DNA of 64,000 bases from a virus (IMGVR_UViG_3300025436_000002:32001-96000), one strand, 5' to 3'; counted from the first letter of the stretch, positions 32,773 through 64,000 are shown. Numbers and translations: made by a program. The notes: a model not told the origin generated them from the sequence alone.

Positions 32773-33254
32773 TGTGTAATAATGAAATAGGTAAATTAGA
32801 TAAAAGACAGCTTAAAACTTTAATAGAAAGGCTGGTACCCTTTGAAGAGTTAACAGATGTTCATACGGGAAGACCTATAGATATTAAATTAGGTACTTGT
32901 TTTTGCTTATTTCATGATAATAAAAATAGTCCCGCAGCTAAATGGTTCCATGATGAGGATGGAATAACTAGATTACAGTGTTGGAGTTGTAATAAACAAT
33001 TTACATCCTATGACTACATTACAAAAATACAAGGACAAGACCCTTTGAAAATCATAGGCATGCAATTCACCGAGAAAGAGTTAAAAGATATCCTAAAGAT
33101 ACTCAGAGATACTGGAAGTTTCGATAAACATATAGATGATTTTTCAAAAGAAATTCATAATAAGTGGGTAGATAGTGATGAAGACTTATCTACATTTTTA
33201 GATGATCTGTATTTTGGGTATACGGTCAAAGAGGTTAGAGAGGAGATTAAATAA
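32772..33254 (+). CDS. primase zinc-binding (CHC2) domain protein, no TOPRIM domain
   Basis: CLFHDNKNSPA...CWSC; only 160 aa. Confidence 0.8.
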   Translation: MCNNEIGKLDKRQLKTLIERLVPFEELTDVHTGRPIDIKLGTCFCLFHDNKNSPAAKWFHDEDGITRLQCWSCNKQFTSYDYITKIQGQDPLKIIGMQFTEKELKDILKILRDTGSFDKHIDDFSKEIHNKWVDSDEDLSTFLDDLYFGYTVKEVREEIK

Positions 33255-36200
33255 TGGCATTAGATAATAAACTAGGGTATACTCACTTCTTTAGTGGACA
33301 AGTGCCTTTAGATTGGAATTGGGAGAGTAAGGCTAAGTTTAACCTCGTAACTAACGTACTCGAGTTACATCAGATACTCTCAGAAAATAAAGGTAAGACA
33401 ATGGCTGTGGATACCGAAACGACTGGATTGGATCTAGGCATGGACAAGGTAGTTGGATTTTCATTCTCTTTTGATGAATGGAAAGGTTACTATGTTCCTA
33501 TAAGACATGAAGAGGTTAGTCGGATAGAAACTGAAGTGCCTAAGATAGATAAAGAGGGTAACAAGGTTTTATACAAGAAAACGGGACTTCCTCAGATGAA
33601 GAAGATAACTCTTGAAGAGTACACTCCTTACAATTGCAATCTTGATCCTAAGGTAGCCTTAGATTTAATATATGAAACCATGCTCAACGCCAAGCTTGTT
33701 TTAATGCACAATGCTATTTTTGACAGCATGATGATAAAAAAAGAAGATTACGACATGTCAAAGATTAACTTATTTGATACTATGGTTTTGACCTATAATT
33801 CAGATACTAACGCCTCAGGTCAATTTGGTCTGAAACCTGCTTCTGAACTCTTCCTAGGCAGAAGAGCCCAGAAGTTCAAAGAGGTATTAGGAAAGTCTAA
33901 AACTTTTCAATATATAAACCCAACAGATTGCTTTGAGTATGCATGTTCGGATGCAATAAATACTTACGGACTGTTTAAAAAATTGTATCCTATGCTTAGA
34001 GCAGAAGGATGTGAAAGCATTCTTAAAATGGACAATGCTTTAGTTAAGTCTTTTATAAATTACTATACCTCAGTTCCTATTTATATCGATAAGAAGATAA
34101 TGAGAGAATATGAGGAAGAGATTTTAAGAAGAAAAAAAGATCTTGAGATGTCTATCTACAAGGCGGTAGGATACCCTTTTAACATAGCTTCAAAATCTAA
34201 CGAACTAGTAAAAGCGTTAGAAAGTATGGGGATAGATACAGGAGTAAAAACTGATGGAGGTAAGATGAGTACCTCCAAGGATTCCCTACTTGCAATATCA
34301 GATAAACATCCCATAGCAAAAGAACTTATAGAGTTAAGCGGTCTTGAGAAAGCTTTAAACACTTATATACATAAACTAGCCAATGCCAACTCAGTGTCCG
34401 ATGAGAATCCAGATGTAGGGATGTGTAGGGTAAACTATAAACTCTTCGGCACAGCCTCAGGAAGGCTTGCATCTGGAGGCGGAGCTAAGTCTAAGGTATT
34501 GGAGGATGATTACTTTATCAATTTGAATATTCAAAATCTGACCAAACCCAAACCAGCCATGTATAATGCTGTAAAAATATCTGATGATTTTAGAGAAGGT
34601 ATTTTAGGTTATAGATTTGATCTATTAGGAAAACCAGGAAGTAATGAAGTCAAAGAATTCATTACTAATAATAAAGATGCTTATATTATAGAAGGATTCT
34701 CCCCAGAGATCAATGTACGAAAAGCTATAAGAGTTAAAGATGATACTGAACTTATTGCCTCATTAGATTACAATGGGGAAGAGTTAAAGATCGCAGGGAT
34801 ATTATCAGGAGAGCCTAATTTTATAGAACCTTTCAGATTAGGTTTAGATGTTCACACAGAAATGGCTAAGAAGTTATTTGGAGAAGCTAACTATAATAAA
34901 GAGAAGAGAAAAGCAGCAAAAGTTTGTTTGGGGGATAACTCATTTGTTTTAACAAATAGAGGCTTGGTTAGACCTTACTCATTATTAAGCACGGATAAAA
35001 TAATAGATAGGTTTGAGAGAGAACAGGATTTTATTTATGCAGAGGATTTTTCGGATACTATTGAAGTGTTATATGATTCAGGCATAGTTGAGGAGTACAA
35101 GACAGATCACCCTGTCTTAACATGGGATGGAGATAAGACATCTTGGAAAAAAGTGGGAGATTTAACAGGTTTAGATCAAGTGTTAACTAGAACAAATATA
35201 CATAAAGGCAGTAGAACATCAAAAATAGTGAATCTTAAAGAGTACTATAAAAGAAAATTTAAGAACATGAAGGATACTTTAATAGATATGGCTACTCCAG
35301 AATTTGCATACATAGCTGGACTCTATTTAGGGGACGGGAGCATAGACTATAGTAACAAAGAAGATCATTATGTGGGAGTTACTTTAGGATGCTCGGATAA
35401 AGTATTAACTAGAGTATTACCTTACCTAAGTAGCTTGGGACTTGGAAAATTAACTCCCTACAAAGTTGGTAAGAACAAAGTACTAAATATATTAAAACTT
35501 AATAATAGACCTCTAGCAGAAGTGTTTGAAATTAATTTTGGCAGGAAGGAATCTAAAAAGATACCTGATTGGATATACACCCACTGGGATTCTGGATGTC
35601 TTACTAACTTTATTTCAGGTCTACTAGATTCAGATGGAACCCGAAAAGGGAATAGATTATTCTTTGGGAATAAGAACATGAATATCATAAATAACTTTGC
35701 ACTAACATGTTCTTTATTAGGAATAAAAACTAGGTATATAAAAGAAACACCTAAGTACAAAGGAATTCCGTTCGATTTTCACACTCTTGTATTATATGAA
35801 ATAGGAGACGTTAACCTAAATTTATCAAATGATTACAAGAATGTAACTAAGTCCAAGTACACTAATATAAGTTGGAATTGTACAAGTAAACTTGCTGATA
35901 TTTTACATAGTAAAGTATTTTCTATTCCTAAAACATCAAAGACTATTAGAGATAACATCTATAACATTAAGAAAAAGGGATGCGGGCTTACAAGAAATGT
36001 ACTAACTGAATTAGAATCGCTAGGGATAATCCTTGACATTAGTGGAGATTACCAACCCTCAAAAGTTATATCCAAAAAGATGGGTAATGGTAGAATACAC
36101 GCAATTCAGACTACACACAGGGAGTACGTAAGTTCTTGTATAGTTAGTCATAATTGTAACTTTGGGATGTTATACGGGGGAAGCCCGAATGTATTAAGGG

Positions 36201-36748
36201 CTGTAGCTGCTTCACAGGGGTTAATACTTTCAGAGAAAGAGTCTAAGGAATTATTTAATAAGTGGTGGAGAGCTAACTCAATCTTAAAATCATGGATACA
36301 GACTAACTTAGACTTAATCAAAGAAAATAACTTCACCGTTAAGGATATGTTTGGCCGACCAAGGAGAGTAAAATCATATCTTTGCTCAGAGGAGAAGGGA
36401 GTGTATAATTTTGGTTGTCGTAGTATCCCGTCGCATCAAATTCAAGGTTCTGGGTCTTCAATAATCCGTAGACTAACTATAAATTTGGAGAAAAAAGTAT
36501 TTAGCAACCCAGTTTATAAAGATAGAGCAAGGTTTATATCAGAAGTTCACGATGAAATGAATGTAGCTTTTAAGAAAGAAAATATAATAGATGATGTTAG
36601 GATGTTAGAAGATGAGATGATATATAAACCTAAAGGATCTCCAATTCCCATAGATTGTAGTATAGAGTTGGGTAACAATTTAGGAGAACTGTTTGGATTT
36701 GTGTGGGAAACATCTGAGAGATTGAAATTAATACCTAAGAGAGCTTGA
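33254..36748 (+). CDS. polA: family A DNA polymerase with 3'-5' exonuclease, interrupted by an intein
   Basis: VDTETTGL, HNAIFD, YACSD; TASGRLAS; motif A LDYNGEEL; motif B RKAAK..NFGMLYG; IQGS; motif C VHDE. Confidence 0.96.
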   Translation: MALDNKLGYTHFFSGQVPLDWNWESKAKFNLVTNVLELHQILSENKGKTMAVDTETTGLDLGMDKVVGFSFSFDEWKGYYVPIRHEEVSRIETEVPKIDKEGNKVLYKKTGLPQMKKITLEEYTPYNCNLDPKVALDLIYETMLNAKLVLMHNAIFDSMMIKKEDYDMSKINLFDTMVLTYNSDTNASGQFGLKPASELFLGRRAQKFKEVLGKSKTFQYINPTDCFEYACSDAINTYGLFKKLYPMLRAEGCESILKMDNALVKSFINYYTSVPIYIDKKIMREYEEEILRRKKDLEMSIYKAVGYPFNIASKSNELVKALESMGIDTGVKTDGGKMSTSKDSLLAISDKHPIAKELIELSGLEKALNTYIHKLANANSVSDENPDVGMCRVNYKLFGTASGRLASGGGAKSKVLEDDYFINLNIQNLTKPKPAMYNAVKISDDFREGILGYRFDLLGKPGSNEVKEFITNNKDAYIIEGFSPEINVRKAIRVKDDTELIASLDYNGEELKIAGILSGEPNFIEPFRLGLDVHTEMAKKLFGEANYNKEKRKAAKVCLGDNSFVLTNRGLVRPYSLLSTDKIIDRFEREQDFIYAEDFSDTIEVLYDSGIVEEYKTDHPVLTWDGDKTSWKKVGDLTGLDQVLTRTNIHKGSRTSKIVNLKEYYKRKFKNMKDTLIDMATPEFAYIAGLYLGDGSIDYSNKEDHYVGVTLGCSDKVLTRVLPYLSSLGLGKLTPYKVGKNKVLNILKLNNRPLAEVFEINFGRKESKKIPDWIYTHWDSGCLTNFISGLLDSDGTRKGNRLFFGNKNMNIINNFALTCSLLGIKTRYIKETPKYKGIPFDFHTLVLYEIGDVNLNLSNDYKNVTKSKYTNISWNCTSKLADILHSKVFSIPKTSKTIRDNIYNIKKKGCGLTRNVLTELESLGIILDISGDYQPSKVISKKMGNGRIHAIQTTHREYVSSCIVSHNCNFGMLYGGSPNVLRAVAASQGLILSEKESKELFNKWWRANSILKSWIQTNLDLIKENNFTVKDMFGRPRRVKSYLCSEEKGVYNFGCRSIPSHQIQGSGSSIIRRLTINLEKKVFSNPVYKDRARFISEVHDEMNVAFKKENIIDDVRMLEDEMIYKPKGSPIPIDCSIELGNNLGELFGFVWETSERLKLIPKRA
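34925..36154 (+). mobile_element. intein with LAGLIDADG homing endonuclease (410 aa)
   Basis: Starts CLGDNSFV, block B TDHPVL, YIAGLYLGDG and FISGLLDSDG, ends IVSHN followed by Cys; removal restores KAAKV-CNFG. Confidence 0.95.
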
Positions 36749-52743: not shown

Positions 52744-53349
52744 ATGACAGTAGTAGTGGCATACGTAGATGAATCTAACAAGAAGATAATCATGGGTGCA
52801 GATACTTGCATAGTTTACGGTTCTATGGAATTTGAAAAAGTCTCGGATAAAATAAAAGTATTCAAGGTTACAACTTCTTCATCAGAAGGTAAGAAGAAAA
52901 GAAAACTCAAAGCCGTTAAAGAGGTTGCAGAAAAAGTAACAACTGAAGAGATGGTTTTAGGTTTCGCAGGAACGTGGGCAGTTATCCAACAGATTATGTA
53001 TAACTTAGAAGTACCTGAGTATGTAGGTCAAGATTTAGTAGGATACATGGTTAGGGATGTAGCCCCTGCTATTAAAGACTTAGCAGACTTAGGAGAGACT
53101 GAACCTCTAAGTGTTATGGTAGGGTTTAAAGGTAGACTTTTTGAAATAGATGAACAGTTTAGTGTAACTGAGAACTTTAAAAATTACTCTGCAATAGGTA
53201 GTGGAGCTAATCATGCTAAAGCATCTCTCTACGCTCAAAGAGATTCTAGCCTATCCCCAACTGAAAAAGTAACAGAGGCTCTCGAATGTGCAGCCAACTT
53301 TATAATAAATGTTAAAGCTCCTTTCACATACCATACGATATATTCATAA
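52744..53349 (+). CDS. HslV/proteasome-like N-terminal nucleophile protease
   Basis: Thr at position 2 (MTVVVA), MGAD, DK, GFAG, AIGSG. Confidence 0.85.
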   Translation: MTVVVAYVDESNKKIIMGADTCIVYGSMEFEKVSDKIKVFKVTTSSSEGKKKRKLKAVKEVAEKVTTEEMVLGFAGTWAVIQQIMYNLEVPEYVGQDLVGYMVRDVAPAIKDLADLGETEPLSVMVGFKGRLFEIDEQFSVTENFKNYSAIGSGANHAKASLYAQRDSSLSPTEKVTEALECAANFIINVKAPFTYHTIYS

Positions 53350-57408: not shown

Positions 57409-57648
57409 ATGAAAAATATACTAGTCACATTCTGTGAGAATGATTTTATATATTCTGTATATCTACAAGATGGGACAGGTATCCCACTTACAGACTACTG
57501 CCATAGGATACTATCACATATAGCCAGCCAAGGAGTTGAAACTATATTTAATACTCTAACTGAATTACTACAAAGATATCCTGATGCTGAGATAATAGAT
57601 CCAATAGAAGTTTCTAAAATTCTAATGACCGAAGAATTATTAAAATAG
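57409..57648 (+). CDS. C-terminal-tag family protein 1
   Basis: Ends DPIEVSKILMTEELLK*. Confidence 0.8.
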   Translation: MKNILVTFCENDFIYSVYLQDGTGIPLTDYCHRILSHIASQGVETIFNTLTELLQRYPDAEIIDPIEVSKILMTEELLK

Positions 57649-57651
57649 ATT

Positions 57652-57714
57652 GTAAAGTTTCATTTCAATAACCTTACTGAGAGTCTTGACGACTCTCTTT
57701 TTTTATGCTATTCT
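57652..57714 (+). promoter_or_regulatory. terminator/promoter stem-loop cassette
   Basis: GAGAGTC-TTGAC-GACTCTC-T7; TTGACG-N17-TATTCT with TG extension. Confidence 0.8.
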
Positions 57715-57740
57715 ATTCGTGTAAGGTTAGATAAAAGGAA

Positions 57741-58340
57741 ATGTTTATGGAAACTAAACGAGTAAGGCTAACAGGAAGACTTCAAAGACAGGGTAGAATA
57801 AAACATCCAGACTTTAAAAAGTATGGCGTAAGAGAAATCCTAGATAATTTGACTGAAGCATGTAGTAAAGATAAAATAAACTTCGATGGAACTTTAGTAG
57901 GCTTGTCTAAATCCAAGTACAGAGTATTTGAAAAGAGTCATGTATGTGCTAAGTGTGGATTAGAAGCTCAGTACTTTATACTGGAGAAGCATGGTATGTG
58001 GATGGGTAAAGGGAATGTATATAACATATCAAATGAATATAGATTTCATCTTATGGCTGTAAGAGGAGATGGAAGTGAAGTAGAATTCACACAAGATCAC
58101 ATACTTCCTAAAACTTTAGGTGGAATTAATAATCTTATTAATTACCAAACTATGTGTATGGATTGTAATTCTAGGAAGGGTCATAAGGTTGAAGAGAGAG
58201 ATCTTAAAGTAATGAGTAATATCCTAAAGGAACTTGAAATTAAACACATACCTCATGAGGTTAGAACACCTTTTCACATTAAACTAATAAAGATAGTTAA
58301 CAAGGAAAGACGGGAGAGTTTATGTCAGTTTATGAAATAA
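57741..58340 (+). CDS. HNH nuclease domain protein
   Basis: CAKCG...DHILPKTLGG..NLINYQTMCMDCNSRKG. Confidence 0.88.
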   Translation: MFMETKRVRLTGRLQRQGRIKHPDFKKYGVREILDNLTEACSKDKINFDGTLVGLSKSKYRVFEKSHVCAKCGLEAQYFILEKHGMWMGKGNVYNISNEYRFHLMAVRGDGSEVEFTQDHILPKTLGGINNLINYQTMCMDCNSRKGHKVEERDLKVMSNILKELEIKHIPHEVRTPFHIKLIKIVNKERRESLCQFMK

Positions 58341-58600
58341 CAAAGTCAGCTTCTAGGGAAGGAAACGAGATAGTCTTCAGAACTCTTGATAGGCAGAAAG
58401 CTATAGACAAGATTAAAGAATTGGCGGGAGATACTAACCCTGATAAGTGGGAAGGTCAAGTGTGGAACAACGGAAACTCTATGGTAAGAAAATGGATTAA
58501 CAATAAGATAGATGAACCTCTAAACTGGGGCTATGCTTACTCAGCCATGTACGGTGGCAACATCCCTAGCTATTATCTTAAACAACACAAGTTAGATTAA
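58322..58600 (+). CDS. hypothetical protein
   Basis: ORF track; GGGAG RBS. Confidence 0.75.
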   Translation: MSVYEITKSASREGNEIVFRTLDRQKAIDKIKELAGDTNPDKWEGQVWNNGNSMVRKWINNKIDEPLNWGYAYSAMYGGNIPSYYLKQHKLD

Positions 58601-58601
58601 T

Positions 58602-58664
58602 GTAACAAAGTATTAACCTTACATCATTGAGAGCCTTGACGGCTCTCTTTTTTTATGCTATTAT
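58602..58664 (+). promoter_or_regulatory. terminator/promoter stem-loop cassette
   Basis: GTAACAA element; GAGAGCC-TTGAC-GGCTCTC-T7; TTGACG-N17-TATTAT with TG extension. Confidence 0.8.
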
Positions 58665-58699
58665 GTATAAGTGAAGTTATTTAATTAAAGGAGACTGTC

Positions 58700-58975
58700 A
58701 TGTCACAGCAAGCACCTACTGAGAATGTAACTAACCCAAGATACCAAGCTTTCCTAGACTATCATTACGGAAATCATATGTTACATCACTACTCTCAGTT
58801 TATTAACAATATGGTTATTAATTTCCAAAAAGAACACCCTGAGAAAAATATAGGAAAACATGTTGTAGATCACGATGCTTTCACTAGCTATATAATTGAA
58901 AGTGTAGCCAAAGCAAATTCTCTACAGGAGATGGGATATGGGGATCATGCTCAATTTATCTGGGGAGACATGTAA
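58700..58975 (+). CDS. hypothetical protein
   Basis: ORF track; AAGGAG RBS. Confidence 0.78.
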   Translation: MSQQAPTENVTNPRYQAFLDYHYGNHMLHHYSQFINNMVINFQKEHPEKNIGKHVVDHDAFTSYIIESVAKANSLQEMGYGDHAQFIWGDM

Positions 58976-59244
58976 TGAATGAACTATTCGGAGATGATGT
59001 TCAAGGACTCTTCGTAGCTCACAGTCTGGAGGATTCCCTTGACTTCAAATTCTTCATATACGAGGGATTAAACTATCAAACTAGAATTAAATATAGAAAC
59101 TATGATTGGTCGAGAACGAGGATATGGGCAAACTCAACTCCAGAACAAGCATTGGAAACATTTAAGAATGATCCAAAGTATGTAGTATATGAAGATATAG
59201 CTGGATTTAAGAAGTATCTGATGACAAGAGAACTTATTAAGTAG
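58975..59244 (+). CDS. C-terminal-tag family protein 2
   Basis: Ends DIAGFKKYLMTRELIK*. Confidence 0.8.
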   Translation: MNELFGDDVQGLFVAHSLEDSLDFKFFIYEGLNYQTRIKYRNYDWSRTRIWANSTPEQALETFKNDPKYVVYEDIAGFKKYLMTRELIK

Positions 59245-59254
59245 GAGAACTATA

Positions 59255-59959
59255 ATGAATGATAATATCATAGAGTTGTTTAGAGACATCAAAGGTTATG
59301 AAGGAAGATACTTGGTCTCGAATCTAGGTAATGTCAAAAGTCTAAACTATGCACGTACTGGGAGAGAGCAACTACTAAAGTTAAGGTTAGATGGTAAGGG
59401 TTATCCCTTTGTGACGTTACCTACAAAAAATCAACAGAGAGTGCACAGGCTTGTTGCTATCGCATTCATCCCTAATGATGAGGATAAACCTTACATAAAT
59501 CACATAGATGGTAATACATCCAATAACTCTATTGAGAATATTGAATGGTGTACTCCCGAAGAGAACATGAGACATAGATCTGATACTCTAGGATATAAAC
59601 ATTCTCAGGAAACGAGGGATAAGATAGGGTTAAAAGCTAAAGGTAGGACTATACATATAAATACCAAGAGATCTAGGCATAGACCAGTTAGGTGTATTGA
59701 GACAGGCATTGTCTATAGCTCACAAGTTGAAGCGGAATCTAAAACTGGCGTACTCGACAAATATATTTCAAATTGTTGTGCGGGTAGAGTAAAGACAGCA
59801 GGACATTTACATTGGGAGTTTGTTTTAGAATGTAGGGAATTTCAGAGTATTGTAGAATCTAGTTCAGTGTGTCAAGAGAAGATTGATGGGGTATTTAAAG
59901 AGAGTGGTAAAGGTACTGGTATCAGTGTATTAGTAACTAAGTTTGTTAAGGGATTATAA
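59255..59959 (+). CDS. NUMOD4-HNH homing endonuclease
   Basis: FRDIKGYEGRYLVSNLGNVKS; VHRLVAIAFI...INHIDGNTSNN...EWCTPEEN; HSQETRDKI; ISNCC. Confidence 0.93.
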   Translation: MNDNIIELFRDIKGYEGRYLVSNLGNVKSLNYARTGREQLLKLRLDGKGYPFVTLPTKNQQRVHRLVAIAFIPNDEDKPYINHIDGNTSNNSIENIEWCTPEENMRHRSDTLGYKHSQETRDKIGLKAKGRTIHINTKRSRHRPVRCIETGIVYSSQVEAESKTGVLDKYISNCCAGRVKTAGHLHWEFVLECREFQSIVESSSVCQEKIDGVFKESGKGTGISVLVTKFVKGL

Positions 59960-59961
59960 AT

Positions 59962-60282
59962 GTGACAAAGATTACGCTTGAGAATACTAATACACTACGT
60001 ATGAGAACTATTCCAGACGGGTTATCTCTCTTTAATCCTAGGGACGGACAACCTGAAATAGCTTATATGTTCTATGTGCTAGGTAGTAAACTTTGTGTAA
60101 TATCTTCAACTCACTATAATAACTTTAGAGATCCTACCTGTTGGATTGTTAGTTCTAGTAAAGAAAAATTAGAAACCCTAGGGAAGCTTACTGAAGCGTA
60201 TGCAACTTATAGGAACTTTTCTTTTACAACAGATACTAAAGAGATCAAAAGGCATATGATGATGAGGGAATTACTACAATGA
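59962..60282 (+). CDS. C-terminal-tag family protein 3
   Basis: Ends DTKEIKRHMMMRELLQ*. Confidence 0.78.
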   Translation: MTKITLENTNTLRMRTIPDGLSLFNPRDGQPEIAYMFYVLGSKLCVISSTHYNNFRDPTCWIVSSSKEKLETLGKLTEAYATYRNFSFTTDTKEIKRHMMMRELLQ

Positions 60283-60599
60283 GTAAAGTAACTCTAGGGG
60301 AGGTAATGATACTTGAAGGGATGTCTCCGATAGCTATATCTATATTCAGATATGGATATGATCGAATGATAGAGGAAATATCTTACAGGTTCTATATTAT
60401 GCAAGATAAACTTTTCTATATAGCTGATAAAGAAAACAGCCAGTTATTAGAAAAACCTCTGTGGGGAAGAGACACTAGATTTTCGGGAGATCTTTTAGAT
60501 AAGTTAGCTGAGGAATACTCAGGTGTGGGTAACTATTACCTCATAAGAGGGTATAAGGAAGTTAATAAATACATGATGGCAAGGGAGCTATTAAAATGA
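60279..60599 (+). CDS. C-terminal-tag family protein 4
   Basis: Ends GYKEVNKYMMARELLK*. Confidence 0.8.
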   Translation: MSKVTLGEVMILEGMSPIAISIFRYGYDRMIEEISYRFYIMQDKLFYIADKENSQLLEKPLWGRDTRFSGDLLDKLAEEYSGVGNYYLIRGYKEVNKYMMARELLK

Positions 60600-60844
60600 A
60601 TACTAAGTACTTTGCAGAGTATTATGATTTCTATAGGAGATACACTAAGAAGTTCTTTTTAAACAAAGACACTAATACTATTTTGTATGATATGGAAAGA
60701 GGAATGCATTCATCCCTCATAAATCTTTTTTATTTTGGAGGATTCAAGTGTCTATTGGAGGAGTTTGGAGGCAACCCTGATTTCTATATATACGATAATA
60801 AGCTATTCGATAAGTATTTAATGATAGAAGAATTAGAAAAATAA
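60596..60844 (+). CDS. C-terminal-tag family protein 5
   Basis: Ends DNKLFDKYLMIEELEK*. Confidence 0.8.
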   Translation: MNTKYFAEYYDFYRRYTKKFFLNKDTNTILYDMERGMHSSLINLFYFGGFKCLLEEFGGNPDFYIYDNKLFDKYLMIEELEK

Positions 60845-60861
60845 GGGGGGGGGAAAATAAA

Positions 60862-61047
60862 GTGGCTAAACCTATAACTACAACCTCAGAAAAGATTCAA
60901 GCCTATAGACTCAAGTATGGATGTGGAATCATGGATGCAAAGGAAGCAGTACTCTCACAAGAAAGAGAAGATAGGATACTCAGCTTAGAAGCTAGAATAG
61001 AAAAACTCGAGAGATTAGTTAGGAAGTTAGTTAGGGATAGTAAATGA
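60862..61047 (+). CDS. hypothetical protein (no tag)
   Basis: GTG start after a G9 run; YRLKYGCGIMDAKEA plus coiled coil. Confidence 0.7.
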   Translation: MAKPITTTSEKIQAYRLKYGCGIMDAKEAVLSQEREDRILSLEARIEKLERLVRKLVRDSK

Positions 61048-61283
61048 AAAAGATAGCTATATACCAAGAACCTAACGGAATATTCTCAAGAGTATATTGG
61101 ATGACGGATACTCTATCAATTTTAATGGAGTACTCTTCTGTTACGAGCTCACTCCCTATTACAGAGTACTTAGGAGATATTTGTGATCTATTACGCCAAT
61201 ATGTACAGACGAGACAAGATTTTAAAATACTGGATCAAAAACTATTTGATAAATATCTTATGGTGGAAGAGTTACTAAAGTAA
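61044..61283 (+). CDS. C-terminal-tag family protein 6
   Basis: Ends DQKLFDKYLMVEELLK*. Confidence 0.8.
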   Translation: MKKIAIYQEPNGIFSRVYWMTDTLSILMEYSSVTSSLPITEYLGDICDLLRQYVQTRQDFKILDQKLFDKYLMVEELLK

Positions 61284-61341
61284 CAATAATTTAATAATAG
61301 AGAAAGAGAGTATTGACAATGAGTTAATACTCTGCTACTAT
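61280..61341 (+). promoter_or_regulatory. sigma70-type promoter/stem-loop cassette
   Basis: GTAACAATA element; TTGACA-N17-TACTAT; inverted repeat AGAGTATTGAC/GTTAATACTCT. Confidence 0.8.
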
Positions 61342-61375
61342 ATTTAGATACTGTTAACTAAAAGGAGATAAAGCT

Positions 61376-61723
61376 ATGAGTAAACCAGAAGAAATAACTA
61401 AGGCTATCTTTAATCAAATAGGTGGGAGAACTTTAATGCTTATGCTCGGAATTACTGTAGCTAACTGTATGCAAATAGATAATAAAGTACAGGGTAATGG
61501 TTTGATGATAGGTAAGATTAAATCTGCTAAAGTTAATACTATCGACATTATCTTAAACGGAAAAGATTTATATGACGTAACTTTTTATATGAAGAAGATA
61601 ACAAAAGGATATGATGTAAAGATAACTAAAAGAATAGAGTTCAAGGATATATATTGTGACGGATTGATGGACTTGATAGGAGCTCAGACAGGTCTTTACT
61701 TAACATTAAATGCAAGAGGATAA
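61376..61723 (+). CDS. hypothetical phage protein (no tag)
   Basis: AAGGAG RBS; IFNQIGG...MLG, DLYDVTF, DIYCD, TGLYL. Confidence 0.8.
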   Translation: MSKPEEITKAIFNQIGGRTLMLMLGITVANCMQIDNKVQGNGLMIGKIKSAKVNTIDIILNGKDLYDVTFYMKKITKGYDVKITKRIEFKDIYCDGLMDLIGAQTGLYLTLNARG

Positions 61724-61726
61724 CAG

Positions 61727-61987
61727 ATGAGGAGACCTTCAATATTAACTCTAGTAGCTATAGCTAAGTCTGTTAATAATGAATCAAACTTAGCCTACTA
61801 CCGTGATGAACTGGGTGAGATATATTGGAGTTCTATATTTTCAAAGACCTTAGGAATGCAGGACATATGCTTAGATCGTAATTGGTCTATAAAAAAGTTA
61901 GCATGGATGGTAGCCAACCCTAAATACTTCATAACAGACTCTAAGGAACTGGACAAGTATTTAATGACTAGGGAGCTACTGAAATGA
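61727..61987 (+). CDS. C-terminal-tag family protein 7
   Basis: Ends DSKELDKYLMTRELLK*. Confidence 0.8.
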   Translation: MRRPSILTLVAIAKSVNNESNLAYYRDELGEIYWSSIFSKTLGMQDICLDRNWSIKKLAWMVANPKYFITDSKELDKYLMTRELLK

Positions 61988-62337
61988 AGATTTACAAAGC
62001 TTCTGATGATAGTAGTATATTCTATATTAATCTAAATAAACCTAAGAATAGTAAAGACCTACGAGATTTTAAACTTACGTACACGGCTTTAAGTTTTAAG
62101 ACTATTCTAAATATTAACTTCTCCATAAGGGATACTATAGTAGTACTCTATGATACTGAAATACTTTCATTTTTTATTACAAATATTATGAGGAAACGTC
62201 AAAGTATTAACAGTAATCTAATTCTTTCGAGTATTGAATGTTACTATCAACTAAATTTGGAAGACTACGCTAAAAAGCTTCCTATAAAAGATAAAGACTT
62301 TAAGAAAGCTTTAATGATAAAGGAGTTGTTGAGATGA
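61984..62337 (+). CDS. C-terminal-tag family protein 8
   Basis: Ends KDKDFKKALMIKELLR*. Confidence 0.8.
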   Translation: MKIYKASDDSSIFYINLNKPKNSKDLRDFKLTYTALSFKTILNINFSIRDTIVVLYDTEILSFFITNIMRKRQSINSNLILSSIECYYQLNLEDYAKKLPIKDKDFKKALMIKELLR

Positions 62338-62639
62338 ATACATGGGTTCGGACACCAGTTATCCCTTGTGAAATAGTAGCTATCCAACGTCTAGAAGAAC
62401 TTAGTGGACGGTGGTTATGTGCTTATTGGATTAGAAGAATTCCTATAGAAGGTGTAGTCTTTCATGATCCTAAAGCTATCCAAGCACATTCTTATATAAA
62501 CTATGACTGGAACAATATCTGTGAAGATATGAGAAGTTCTTTAGAAGAACTAATTAAGATAAACCCAGTTGCTATCGAATTGATAATAGATAGAAAAGAG
62601 ATCAATAAGATATTAATGATCATGGAGTTACGGAGATGA
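62334..62639 (+). CDS. C-terminal-tag family protein 9
   Basis: Ends DRKEINKILMIMELRR*. Confidence 0.8.
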   Translation: MNTWVRTPVIPCEIVAIQRLEELSGRWLCAYWIRRIPIEGVVFHDPKAIQAHSYINYDWNNICEDMRSSLEELIKINPVAIELIIDRKEINKILMIMELRR

Positions 62640-63004
62640 AACCTATACTAACAACAACAATGAATATAGATTTAAGTAAGCACGGCTCTCCTTGTGAACT
62701 AGTAGCTATTGAAGAACTAGCATACCCCCGCTTCTGTGGAGGGATGGGGGAGATAGAGATTACAACTCTCTACTGGATGAGAAAGATAGCTCCAGAAGGA
62801 ATTATAGATAATGATTTTAATAGAGAGTACTATTCAAAACTGATATGTTACTCTTCATTAGATTATATGTGGAACATAGCTGAAAGACAGTATGAACGCA
62901 AATCACTTAAAGAATTACTAGATTCAACCTCATCCCTTAATAATCTAATAACAGATCCTAAAGAAATTAATAAGATATTAATGACAAAGGAGTTACTAAA
63001 GTAA
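62636..63004 (+). CDS. C-terminal-tag family protein 10
   Basis: Ends DPKEINKILMTKELLK*. Confidence 0.8.
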   Translation: MKPILTTTMNIDLSKHGSPCELVAIEELAYPRFCGGMGEIEITTLYWMRKIAPEGIIDNDFNREYYSKLICYSSLDYMWNIAERQYERKSLKELLDSTSSLNNLITDPKEINKILMTKELLK

Positions 63005-63294
63005 TGGAAGACAATTTAAAATTAGTAGCTATAGTTAAATATAGGCAGGGAGGTGCTCTAGTCTATGCTTTCTATGAGAGGCTGGGTTCTATGTGGGGAA
63101 GTCGTAAGACAGTATTAAAGACTATACCTTATTATGACTTTAAAATACATCGTAGTAGTATAGGAATATTCTACAATGGGTACACTAATATAAAATGTAT
63201 AGTAAGAGACTATGAAGATGATTACAGTAAAGAAGTTATAACAGACGAGAAAGAGATCAATAGGTACTTGATGACTAGGGAGTTATTAAAATGA
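63004..63294 (+). CDS. C-terminal-tag family protein 11
   Basis: Ends DEKEINRYLMTRELLK*. Confidence 0.8.
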   Translation: MEDNLKLVAIVKYRQGGALVYAFYERLGSMWGSRKTVLKTIPYYDFKIHRSSIGIFYNGYTNIKCIVRDYEDDYSKEVITDEKEINRYLMTRELLK

Positions 63295-63668
63295 AATATC
63301 TCGGAATTAAATACGCAACTATCAACATAGAGACTAGCCATCCAGAAATTGAACTGGTAGCTATCGAGGTATTACCTTATAGTCTACTAGCATGGAGCGG
63401 TAGTTTTGGTGATGAGGATGTTAGCCTTCTGTATTGGATGAGACGGGTACTTCCATCTGGAGTTATAATGAACGAGATCAATCTGAAATACTATCGAGAA
63501 GTAATATGCTACTACACTCCATCAGAACATGTATGGGATAGTGGACGATGTCGTGCTGAATGTACTTCACTCCAGATACTCCTAGATTGTATTCCAGAGA
63601 GTCATAAACTTATTACAGATCCTAAAGAAATAAATAAGATACTAATGACACAGGAGTTATTAAAATAA
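63291..63668 (+). CDS. C-terminal-tag family protein 12
   Basis: Ends DPKEINKILMTQELLK*. Confidence 0.8.
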   Translation: MKYLGIKYATINIETSHPEIELVAIEVLPYSLLAWSGSFGDEDVSLLYWMRRVLPSGVIMNEINLKYYREVICYYTPSEHVWDSGRCRAECTSLQILLDCIPESHKLITDPKEINKILMTQELLK

Positions 63669-63928
63669 TGAGAAAATTCATACTCTTAATTATAGATGAT
63701 AACATGACTTTTATCAAACTAACAAAGGAAACAAGTAGGAGAGAAGGAAACTACGGAACATACTATGTTACTACAGACGGGTACGGTACTGGAACAAGAC
63801 TTCCTTCATTCTTTAACCATAAAGACAAAGGAGATATGAGAAGACTACTCTCAGGAAATACTAACAGGAGATTAGCTACCCCCGAGGAGACAGTAAAGTA
63901 TTTAATGCTTGAGGAGTTATTGAAATGA
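63668..63928 (+). CDS. C-terminal-tag family protein 13
   Basis: Ends TPEETVKYLMLEELLK*. Confidence 0.8.
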   Translation: MRKFILLIIDDNMTFIKLTKETSRREGNYGTYYVTTDGYGTGTRLPSFFNHKDKGDMRRLLSGNTNRRLATPEETVKYLMLEELLK

Positions 63929-64000
63929 GAACAAGAGTAGCTGAAAGAGTAGCCTTGGTTATATGCCCAGGAGAGTCTAGGTTTATAGAAGGTGTTTACA
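63925..64000 (+). CDS. 5' end of next coupled ORF (partial, runs off the window end)
   Basis: ATGA overlap and GAGGAG RBS; MRTRVAERVALVICPGESRFIEGVY... Confidence 0.7.
   Translation, partial: MRTRVAERVALVICPGESRFIEGVY

Follow-up and report, generated by a model that had tools for sequence, protein, structure and literature searches.

In the F-box, SOCS-box and poxvirus ankyrin/PRANC protein families, a constant box is combined with a variable target domain, the box is separable from the rest of the protein, and its partner is known. In phages, modular shuffling mediated by promoter-early stem-loop (PeSL) elements has been described in the hyperplastic regions of T4-type genomes (Arbiol et al. 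2010, PMC2839356; Comeau et al. 2014, PMC4122927), and Bacillus phage G carries ~35 copies of a zinc ribbon, a number that was called "unprecedented" (Iyer et al. 2021, PMC7824862). Here we analyzed a tandem array of small genes at positions 57409-63928 of a 64,000-nucleotide stretch of DNA (the window), which corresponds to bases 32001-96000 of a linear, 170,200-bp viral genome (IMG/VR virus record IMGVR_UViG_3300025436_000002; estimated to be ~90% complete). Thirteen open reading frames (ORFs) in this interval end in variants of one C-terminal motif, K-Y-L-M-x-x-E-L-L-K (the tag), whose positions we number back from the C-terminus, such that K(-10) is the first residue of the decapeptide and K(-1) the last. 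A preliminary description, made from the sequence of the window, proposed that the tag is a module attached to many different payload domains. We consider it likely that the 13 ORFs are instead the edge of a lineage-specific tandem expansion (~66 copies) of a single domain of ~75-125 amino acids (aa), in which the tag is the domain's own last helix and is held by three constraints at once.

All 13 ORFs and their decapeptide endings were present as first described (Table 1), and in 13/13, as reported, Met(-7), Glu(-4) and Leu(-3) do not vary and keep a constant distance from the stop codon. A six-frame scan of the whole genome found 66 frames of at least 30 aa ending in M..EL.. on the plus strand and none on the minus strand; because all of the tag frames share one strand, the tag is not a product of chance. 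These frames span genome positions 89.4-148.6 kb, with 64 members packed into 43.6 kb, and the family genes sum to 17.8 kb, or 10.5% of the genome. The suspicion that the array continues past the window was thus correct: a 14th member begins at window position 63925, and the window's 13 ORFs form the upstream edge, about the first fifth, of the array. A hidden Markov model (HMM) of the full-length family recovered 63 frames, again all on the plus strand, including one copy with a Glu->Gly change in the tag and one frameshifted copy, and there are four mini-ORFs (21-27 aa) in which family copies have decayed or lost an internal part.

The preliminary description called the bodies of these proteins, upstream of the tag, largely dissimilar. 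This holds in pairwise comparison, where 41/62 tagless bodies (last 20 residues removed) are BLASTP singletons at an expect value (E) <=1e-3, but not at the level of profiles and folds. In an exhaustive search of 1.84e9 cluster representatives, a profile of 61 full-length members matched 77 proteins at E<=1e-3, and the matches cover positions ~12-87 of 87, amounting to an alignment of the whole protein. Forty of the 77 matched proteins are external to this genome, of which 39 end in the strict M..EL.. motif and the remaining one in KFLMIKEMEK. A common architecture is visible in these proteins: it opens with a first strand of the form M-x-(R/K)-E-Y-(V/I)-A-L, a second strand rich in Tyr, G-x-L-x-Y and a variable stretch, after which come a helix with the pattern L-x-x-E-L-x-x-D, the pair G-Y, a strand with I-T-D and finally the tag.

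As a non-circular test, an HMM was built from the bodies of the external proteins alone and run on the 62 tagless bodies of this genome, alongside 310 shuffled bodies. It recognized 19/62 bodies at E<=0.01 and 31/62 at E<=0.1, compared with 0/310 and 1/310 shuffled bodies, and the sole additional ORFs that it matched in the genome were the two degenerate copies (Glu->Gly and frameshifted). After iteration, 22-23 bodies were recognized at E<=1e-3 and ~41/62 at E<=0.1, with 0/310 shuffled bodies; among the window members, 9/13 were recognized at E<=0.1, those failing being 58975, 60596, 61984 and 63668. Every frame recognized by its body alone carries the tag (in one case with Glu->Gly and in one case frameshifted), and no body-family member without the tag was found. 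Searches of Pfam and PHROGs with the first 10 window members, 63668 and 10 atypical members returned sub-threshold noise only, as did a Pfam search with 57 aligned members. Comparison of the family profile to PDB sequences brought up SRP14 and lysozyme at E 0.5-1.6, which we took as chance matches.

We predicted the structure of a core member with AlphaFold2 from a 57-sequence alignment, and obtained a confident, compact model (predicted local distance difference test, pLDDT, 92.2; predicted template modelling score, pTM, 0.81). Its elements are the strands b1 (residues 5-10), b2 (17-24), b3 (27-34) and b4 (37-43), helix a1 (49-58), strand b5 (62-64) and helix a2 (67-80 of 81). The tag coincides with a2, in agreement with the earlier proposal of a C-terminal helix, and in this model it is the last helix of a compact domain and not an appended module. 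Member 5 of the window (60596-60841), modelled from an 83-sequence alignment, showed the same b1-b4/a1/b5/a2 order (pLDDT 87.8, pTM 0.76). Taken together, the end-to-end profile matches, the body-only profiles and the single fold predicted for two members lend no support to the idea of many different payload domains, and since the whole proteins largely align as one paralog family, the modular tag is for the most part unsupported as well. With ~66 copies, few external relatives and a cassette content that varies, the array is a lineage-specific paralog expansion with birth-and-death turnover.

The fold offers a lead, in structure and for the core model, towards WGR domains (PF05406), which occur in PARP1-3, MolR-like regulators and some DNA ligases, and as standalone phage copies. 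A DNA-binding role has been described for the WGR domains of PARPs (PMC6294510). Foldseek found nothing in the PDB at E<=1e-3 with the core model. VIA-align matched it to the N-terminal domain of 2ra8_A (Z 6.7, root-mean-square deviation 2.9, 69 aligned residues) and to PARP WGR domains (Z 3.7-4.5; PARP-3 Z 4.5), all of these scores lying in the range that the tool calls non-decisive. WGR-containing clusters occupied 4/8 rows in the ESM Atlas (TM 0.58-0.67), and the top match in BFVD was a phage "WGR domain-containing protein" (E 8.8e-3). The resemblance was not reproduced with the model of member 5, whose best Z was 4.5 and for which 2ra8 reached only Z 3.6. The family is similar to WGR domains in size and in its arrangement of an antiparallel sheet with a helix, and differs from them in lacking sequence similarity and in its own hallmark, a highly conserved extra C-terminal helix. 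Of 57 members, none matches the Pfam WGR model even at E<=10, and the family alignments contain no conserved Trp-Gly-Arg column, the only near-invariant body residue being the Tyr of b2; we therefore do not file the family under WGR. Across the whole genome, the WGR model found a single weak match (E 0.005; 14.6 bits, where the cut-off is 22), at genome 29645-29770, and the 220-aa frame that contains it has no relation to the tag family.

Why the tag should be conserved far above the rest of its domain can be approached through its DNA. In 49/66 members the stop codon overlaps the start of the next gene (46 ATGA or GTGA, 3 TAATG), while 17 members are uncoupled, and the sequence upstream of the overlapping starts takes the form ..GGAG-TTATTAAA-ATG. 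The codon at -5 ends in G in 43/49 coupled compared with 5/17 uncoupled members (Fisher p=1.3e-5), Glu(-4) is encoded by GAG in 39/49 compared with 8/17 (p=0.027; the GAG share in bodies is 40%), and Leu(-3) is TTA in 65% of members compared with 31% in bodies. In these sequences, the last base or bases of codon -5, together with the GAG of Glu(-4), form a GGAG Shine-Dalgarno sequence, the Leu-Leu-Lys codons provide an A/T-rich spacer of 8 nt, and the stop then overlaps the next ATG (AAATGA). Translational coupling would in this way chain the genes into trains, and a sigma-70-like promoter apparently stands at the head of each.

The preliminary description had taken synonymous codon variation as a sign of selection on the peptide and not on the DNA. 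The variation is real: Leu uses 5-6 different codons at -8, -3 and -2 (six at -8), and Lys(-10) is AAA or AAG at a ratio of 29:35. Moreover, the 17 uncoupled members keep the peptide, while GAG relaxes to GAA and the third base at -5 relaxes as well. Together, the free synonymous variation at -10 to -6 and the retention of the motif where genes are uncoupled indicate that the tag helix is selected as a peptide. The last five codons, however, are under an additional nucleic-acid constraint. Similarly, the distance from motif to stop is indeed fixed, but it is not a feature of the peptide alone, since codons -5 to -1 also encode the Shine-Dalgarno sequence, spacer and start of the next gene, and both the ATGA overlap and the embedded GGAG demand the same register. 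Ratios of nonsynonymous to synonymous substitution rates (dN/dS) between orthologs in this genome and an environmental relative were 0.22-0.42, and 0.09 for a non-family neighbour.

The same junctions may also serve in recombination. Between non-orthologous junctions, mean pairwise DNA identity is 64% in the tag compared with 28% in the bodies, and exact repeats of 41 and 80 nt are located on junctions. In four metagenome contigs (L010, L012, L017 and L020), each with 4-7 tag ORFs, similarity to this genome at the DNA level is confined to 28-64 nt at junctions. Where the window has 61044-61283, a further environmental relative, L007, carries a cassette with an unrelated body (no protein alignment at E<=100), bordered on both sides by DNA that is 95-98% identical to the window. 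The right breakpoint of this replacement lies inside the tag, with identity to the window resuming at the Met(-7) codon, and hence falls at the coding tag/junction and not at a PeSL. Cassette order differs as well: L007 carries 61727-like, 63004-like, 62334-like and 63291-like genes, compared with 61727, 61984, 62334, 62636, 63004 and 63291 in the window, and the synonymous divergence (dS) of adjacent cassettes is mosaic (0.55, 0.12, 1.02).

As the only DNA conserved between cassettes, the junction could thus act as a homologous-recombination seam for cassette duplication, deletion and replacement; one replacement with its breakpoint inside the tag was observed, and we infer the recombination mechanism. 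We propose that the tag is conserved far above the rest of its domain because three constraints would coincide on it, namely selection on the helix as a peptide, dual coding and the recombination seam.

Several contigs that had surfaced as possible relatives were discarded: L011, L015 and L016 were chance metagenome matches with no tag ORF, and L018 and L019 each offered a lone 67-aa ORF whose body and context are not family-like. L007 also contains, at 448-728, two small Cys-rich ORFs (40 and 53 aa; CxxC...C) within ~260 bp that are absent from this genome, just downstream of a conserved promoter and before the 61376-like gene.

A number of observations weigh against a single domain whose tag is fully accounted for in this way. 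By sequence, 4/13 window bodies and about one third of the bodies genome-wide give no signal, and the tag ORFs at genome 119469, 143046 and 148229 may have different bodies. Altogether 5-6 members stand out as outliers that may or may not share the fold, at window 61984 and at genome 117057, 119469, 132828, 143046 and 148229. The alignment used for member 5 was made of family members, which may have biased its model to the family fold. Across ~100 sequences, the tag helix holds six positions with an entropy of <=1.1 bits (K-10, L-8, M-7, E-4, L-3 and K-1), while the other ~60 aligned columns hold one position that conserved, the Tyr of b2, and the conserved residues span nearly the whole circumference of the helix. 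Dual coding covers only -5 to -1, and not K(-10), L(-8) or M(-7), and therefore a further function of the helix is likely. Finally, the isoelectric points of the family range over 4.4-9.9, which argues against uniform DNA binding.

One form such a function could take is docking, in which one fold with diversified surfaces would present an exposed invariant face (K-10, M-7, E-4 and L-3) to one shared host or phage partner, each paralog bringing a different target, a possibility that we regard as unlikely. It draws on the conservation of the helix, far above the rest of the fold and on more than one packing face, with invariant residues at 80-200 degrees on the helical wheel and the tolerant hydrophobics (I/V/L at -12, Y/F/I/H at -9, L/M at -2) on the opposite face. 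The conserved charges at K-10, E-4 and K-1 would be unusual for a purely buried helix, and the motif is retained in 39/40 external relatives and in uncoupled genes. However, no candidate for the partner emerged, AlphaFold2 confidently places the helix within a compact domain (pTM 0.81), and the role of the invariant residues could instead be to fasten the helix to the b2 Tyr, itself near-invariant. Furthermore, the tag was not found on a demonstrably foreign fold among the atypical members examined: the 117-aa member at genome 119469 has no homolog besides itself, and the ESM Atlas models for this and a 136-aa member reached a pLDDT of only 0.42-0.48 and feature scores <=0.90.

The invariant face would thus either lock the helix onto the b2 Tyr and a1 or form a shared interaction surface, and of these we find the second doubtful. 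Were it correct, the face would dock ~66 diversified WGR-like domains on one machine, as a phage adaptor repertoire whose array renews itself by recombination at the sequence of the docking helix, a prospect to which we assign a low probability.

It is quite improbable that the shared helix instead serves to build homo- or hetero-oligomers, with translational coupling ensuring stoichiometric co-production. The two hydrophobic stripes on the helix and the long translationally coupled trains would suit such an arrangement, but the compact, high-pTM monomer models need no partner; a homodimer prediction for the core member scored 0.00, which gives no verdict and is not evidence either way. Another reading holds that the motif is kept purely as a ribosome-binding and recombination site, with a peptide that has no role of its own. 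This would account for the GGAG, spacer and ATGA embedded in codons -5 to stop, for the strong contrasts between coupled and uncoupled members, and for junctions being the only conserved DNA, yet positions -10 to -6 sit 16-30 nt upstream of the next start, where synonymous sites are free and residues fixed, the 17 uncoupled members keep the peptide while their Shine-Dalgarno features relax, and the helix belongs to a confidently predicted fold, making this reading very improbable. Short terminal signals have precedent in phage biology, and the fixed register at the extreme C-terminus would fit a degron that sets the timing of many early proteins or a signal that loads them into the capsid, but with a tag that is a structured helix within a domain and not a free tail, and that ends in Lys/Arg, we give this explanation next to no credence.

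Returning to one expanded domain, its biological role can be outlined in general terms. We infer, purely from the pattern of the array, a diversified repertoire of early single-domain binders, with a constant scaffold and variable loops and surfaces, for host takeover or counter-defence, because of its copy number, the combination of purifying selection with fast divergence of loops and surfaces, the spread in isoelectric point and the turnover of cassettes between co-occurring relatives. The WGR-like shape of the core model would make nucleic-acid ends one candidate class of target.

The regulatory layout of the region is consistent with early transcription by the host polymerase, as judged from promoter sequences. 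Genome-wide, extended -10 sigma-70-like sites number 28 on the plus strand compared with 2 on the minus strand, and several lie directly after the ends of trains, in gaps behind uncoupled members. Among these sites are three near-identical composites (genome 89679, 90629 and 120354) that combine a stem-loop enclosing TTGACG with a T-run and an extended -10, and by their sequence are PeSL-type elements (a sigma-70-like promoter plus stem-loop terminator between cassettes) of putative activity. The 80-nt exact repeat, at window 57632-57711 (genome 89632-89711) and genome 120307-120386, 30.7 kb apart, comprises the last tag codons (15 nt of member 1), the stop and a PeSL-like element, with the third near-identical element at window 58629. 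Two genes for HNH-type endonucleases, together with several small genes from outside the family, interrupt the array within the interval (Table 1), and the two HNH-type genes are probably homing-endonuclease insertions that uncoupled the cassettes upstream of them.

Table 1. Features of the array interval, in window coordinates. Coupled, stop codon overlapping the next start; body E, expect value of the tagless body against body-only profiles.
Feature	Position	Strand	Remarks
Member 1, 79 aa, tag KILMTEELLK	57409..57648	+	uncoupled (TAG), then stem-loop/promoter element; body E 0.05-0.1
PeSL-like composite element	57679..57714	+	7-bp stem-loop, TTGACG in loop, T-run, 17-nt spacer, TG-extended -10 TATTCT; consensus match only
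HNH endonuclease, non-family, interrupts array	57741..58340	+	HNH_5 E 3.8e-12
Second PeSL-like stem-loop/promoter element	58629..58664	+	TTGACG-17-TATTAT with TG
Member 2, 89 aa, tag KYLMTRELIK	58975..59244	+	uncoupled (TAG); body E 0.18-1.2, not significant
NUMOD4/HNH_3 homing-type endonuclease, non-family, interrupts array	59255..59959	+	NUMOD4 E 3.3e-11, HNH_3 E 2.2e-10
Member 3, 106 aa, tag RHMMMRELLQ	59962..60282	+	stop/next-start overlap ATGA; body E 0.03-0.05
Member 4, 106 aa, tag KYMMARELLK	60279..60599	+	coupled (ATGA), AGG-GAG Shine-Dalgarno; body E 0.05-0.06
Member 5, 82 aa, tag KYLMIEELEK	60596..60844	+	uncoupled (TAA, then 9-G run); body E 2-36, no signal
Member 6, 79 aa, tag KYLMVEELLK	61044..61283	+	uncoupled (TAA); cassette-replacement site in environmental relative L007
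Sigma-70-like promoter TTGACA-17-TACTAT with TG	61313..61341	+	heads next gene train; conserved in L007
Non-family gene, 115 aa, no known family	61376..61723	+	first gene of train; conserved in L007; dN/dS 0.09
Member 7, 86 aa, tag KYLMTRELLK	61727..61987	+	coupled; L007 ortholog dN/dS 0.26
Member 8, 117 aa, tag KALMIKELLR	61984..62337	+	coupled; most deviant body of the window; body E 15-25, fails full-length HMM; absent from L007
Member 9, 101 aa, tag KILMIMELRR	62334..62639	+	coupled; body E 0.004-0.03; L007/P0004 ortholog dN/dS 0.22
Member 10, 122 aa, tag KILMTKELLK	62636..63004	+	coupled (TAATG); body E 0.02-0.03
Member 11, 96 aa, tag RYLMTRELLK	63004..63294	+	coupled; body E 3.5e-9 to 9e-7; L007 ortholog dN/dS 0.42
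Member 12, 125 aa, tag KILMTQELLK	63291..63668	+	coupled (TAATG); body E 4e-4; 98%-identical copy P0001 on 97-kb contig
Member 13, 86 aa, tag KYLMLEELLK	63668..63928	+	coupled; body E 1.2-8.9, no signal
14th member, 104 aa, tag KYLMVRELLK	63925..64000, ends genome 96239	+	runs off window

The array contains further irregularities. Decayed copies lie at genome 100353-100430, 101228-101483, 102609-102692 and 117584-117649, comprising three mini-ORFs and the frameshifted copy, whose N-terminal part and tag are in different frames; in one mini-ORF the first strand is joined straight to the tag, which looks like an internal deletion. A 140-aa member (genome 107549-107971) has a hydrophobic, probably membrane-spanning N-terminal segment and may be a membrane-anchored variant of the domain. 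Nine consecutive G (window 60845-60853) immediately follow member 5's stop codon, 9 nt ahead of the GTG start of a 61-aa ORF (60862-61047), and may represent a very strong Shine-Dalgarno sequence or a slippage-prone tract.

The phage itself is an uncultured 170-kb myovirus with a GC content of 34%, encoding a tail sheath, a family-A DNA polymerase with a LAGLIDADG insert, and DnaB-like, RecA-like and SNF2 helicase proteins. In the polymerase (1164 aa, window 33254-36748), the LAGLIDADG_3 match lies at residues 783-836, between the exonuclease and the C-terminal polymerase domains, which suggests an intein or an inserted homing endonuclease. The gene at 52744-53349, previously labelled HslV-like, matched no Pfam family at E<=0.01. 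No close relative of this phage was found in the phage collection, with PolA finding only relatives at <=~25% identity, and neither a megablast search with the region nor a tblastn search with one member against 50,697 phage records gave a match. A scan of IMG/VR with a degenerate DNA pattern of the tag and with one member likewise returned nothing.

We found no Pfam family, PHROG family or paper describing this family, which, with ~100 sequences and a confident fold model, constitutes a new protein family for annotation. Among known systems, the F-box, SOCS-box and PRANC families are similar in that one genome contains many paralogs which have a short, conserved helical element at the C-terminus in common. 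They differ in that here the helix lies inside a single compact predicted domain; a constant box on structurally different target domains was not found, the bodies being one family with one predicted fold. If the helix does dock a partner, no adaptor-repertoire system would have been described in a phage before this one.

PeSL-mediated shuffling is similar in its arrays of small, non-essential-looking genes, in the use of short conserved DNA motifs as seams, and in the way close relatives come to differ by inserted, deleted or replaced genes. Three PeSL-like elements occur in this genome too, one of them inside the 80-nt exact repeat. However, the PeSL seam is an intergenic regulatory cassette, whereas the main seam here would run from the last ~10 codons of one gene, through the Shine-Dalgarno sequence and the overlapping start, into the first codons of its neighbour, and PeSL shuffling moves unrelated ORFans, whereas the cassettes described here are paralogs of one family. 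A single stretch of ~30 nt would thereby encode a conserved protein helix, supply the gene behind it with a ribosome-binding site and start, and offer a homology patch for cassette exchange, and the array provides a concrete, testable model for the assembly and renewal of large repertoires of small early proteins in phages.

The zinc ribbons of phage G are similar in that one small domain occurs in tens of copies in one phage genome, with proposed nucleic-acid or other specific binding. The present array belongs to a different, unnamed family, and its members lie in coupled trains with a dual-coding junction; at ~66 copies it is about twice as large as that of phage G, in a genome one-third the size, of which it takes up a tenth.

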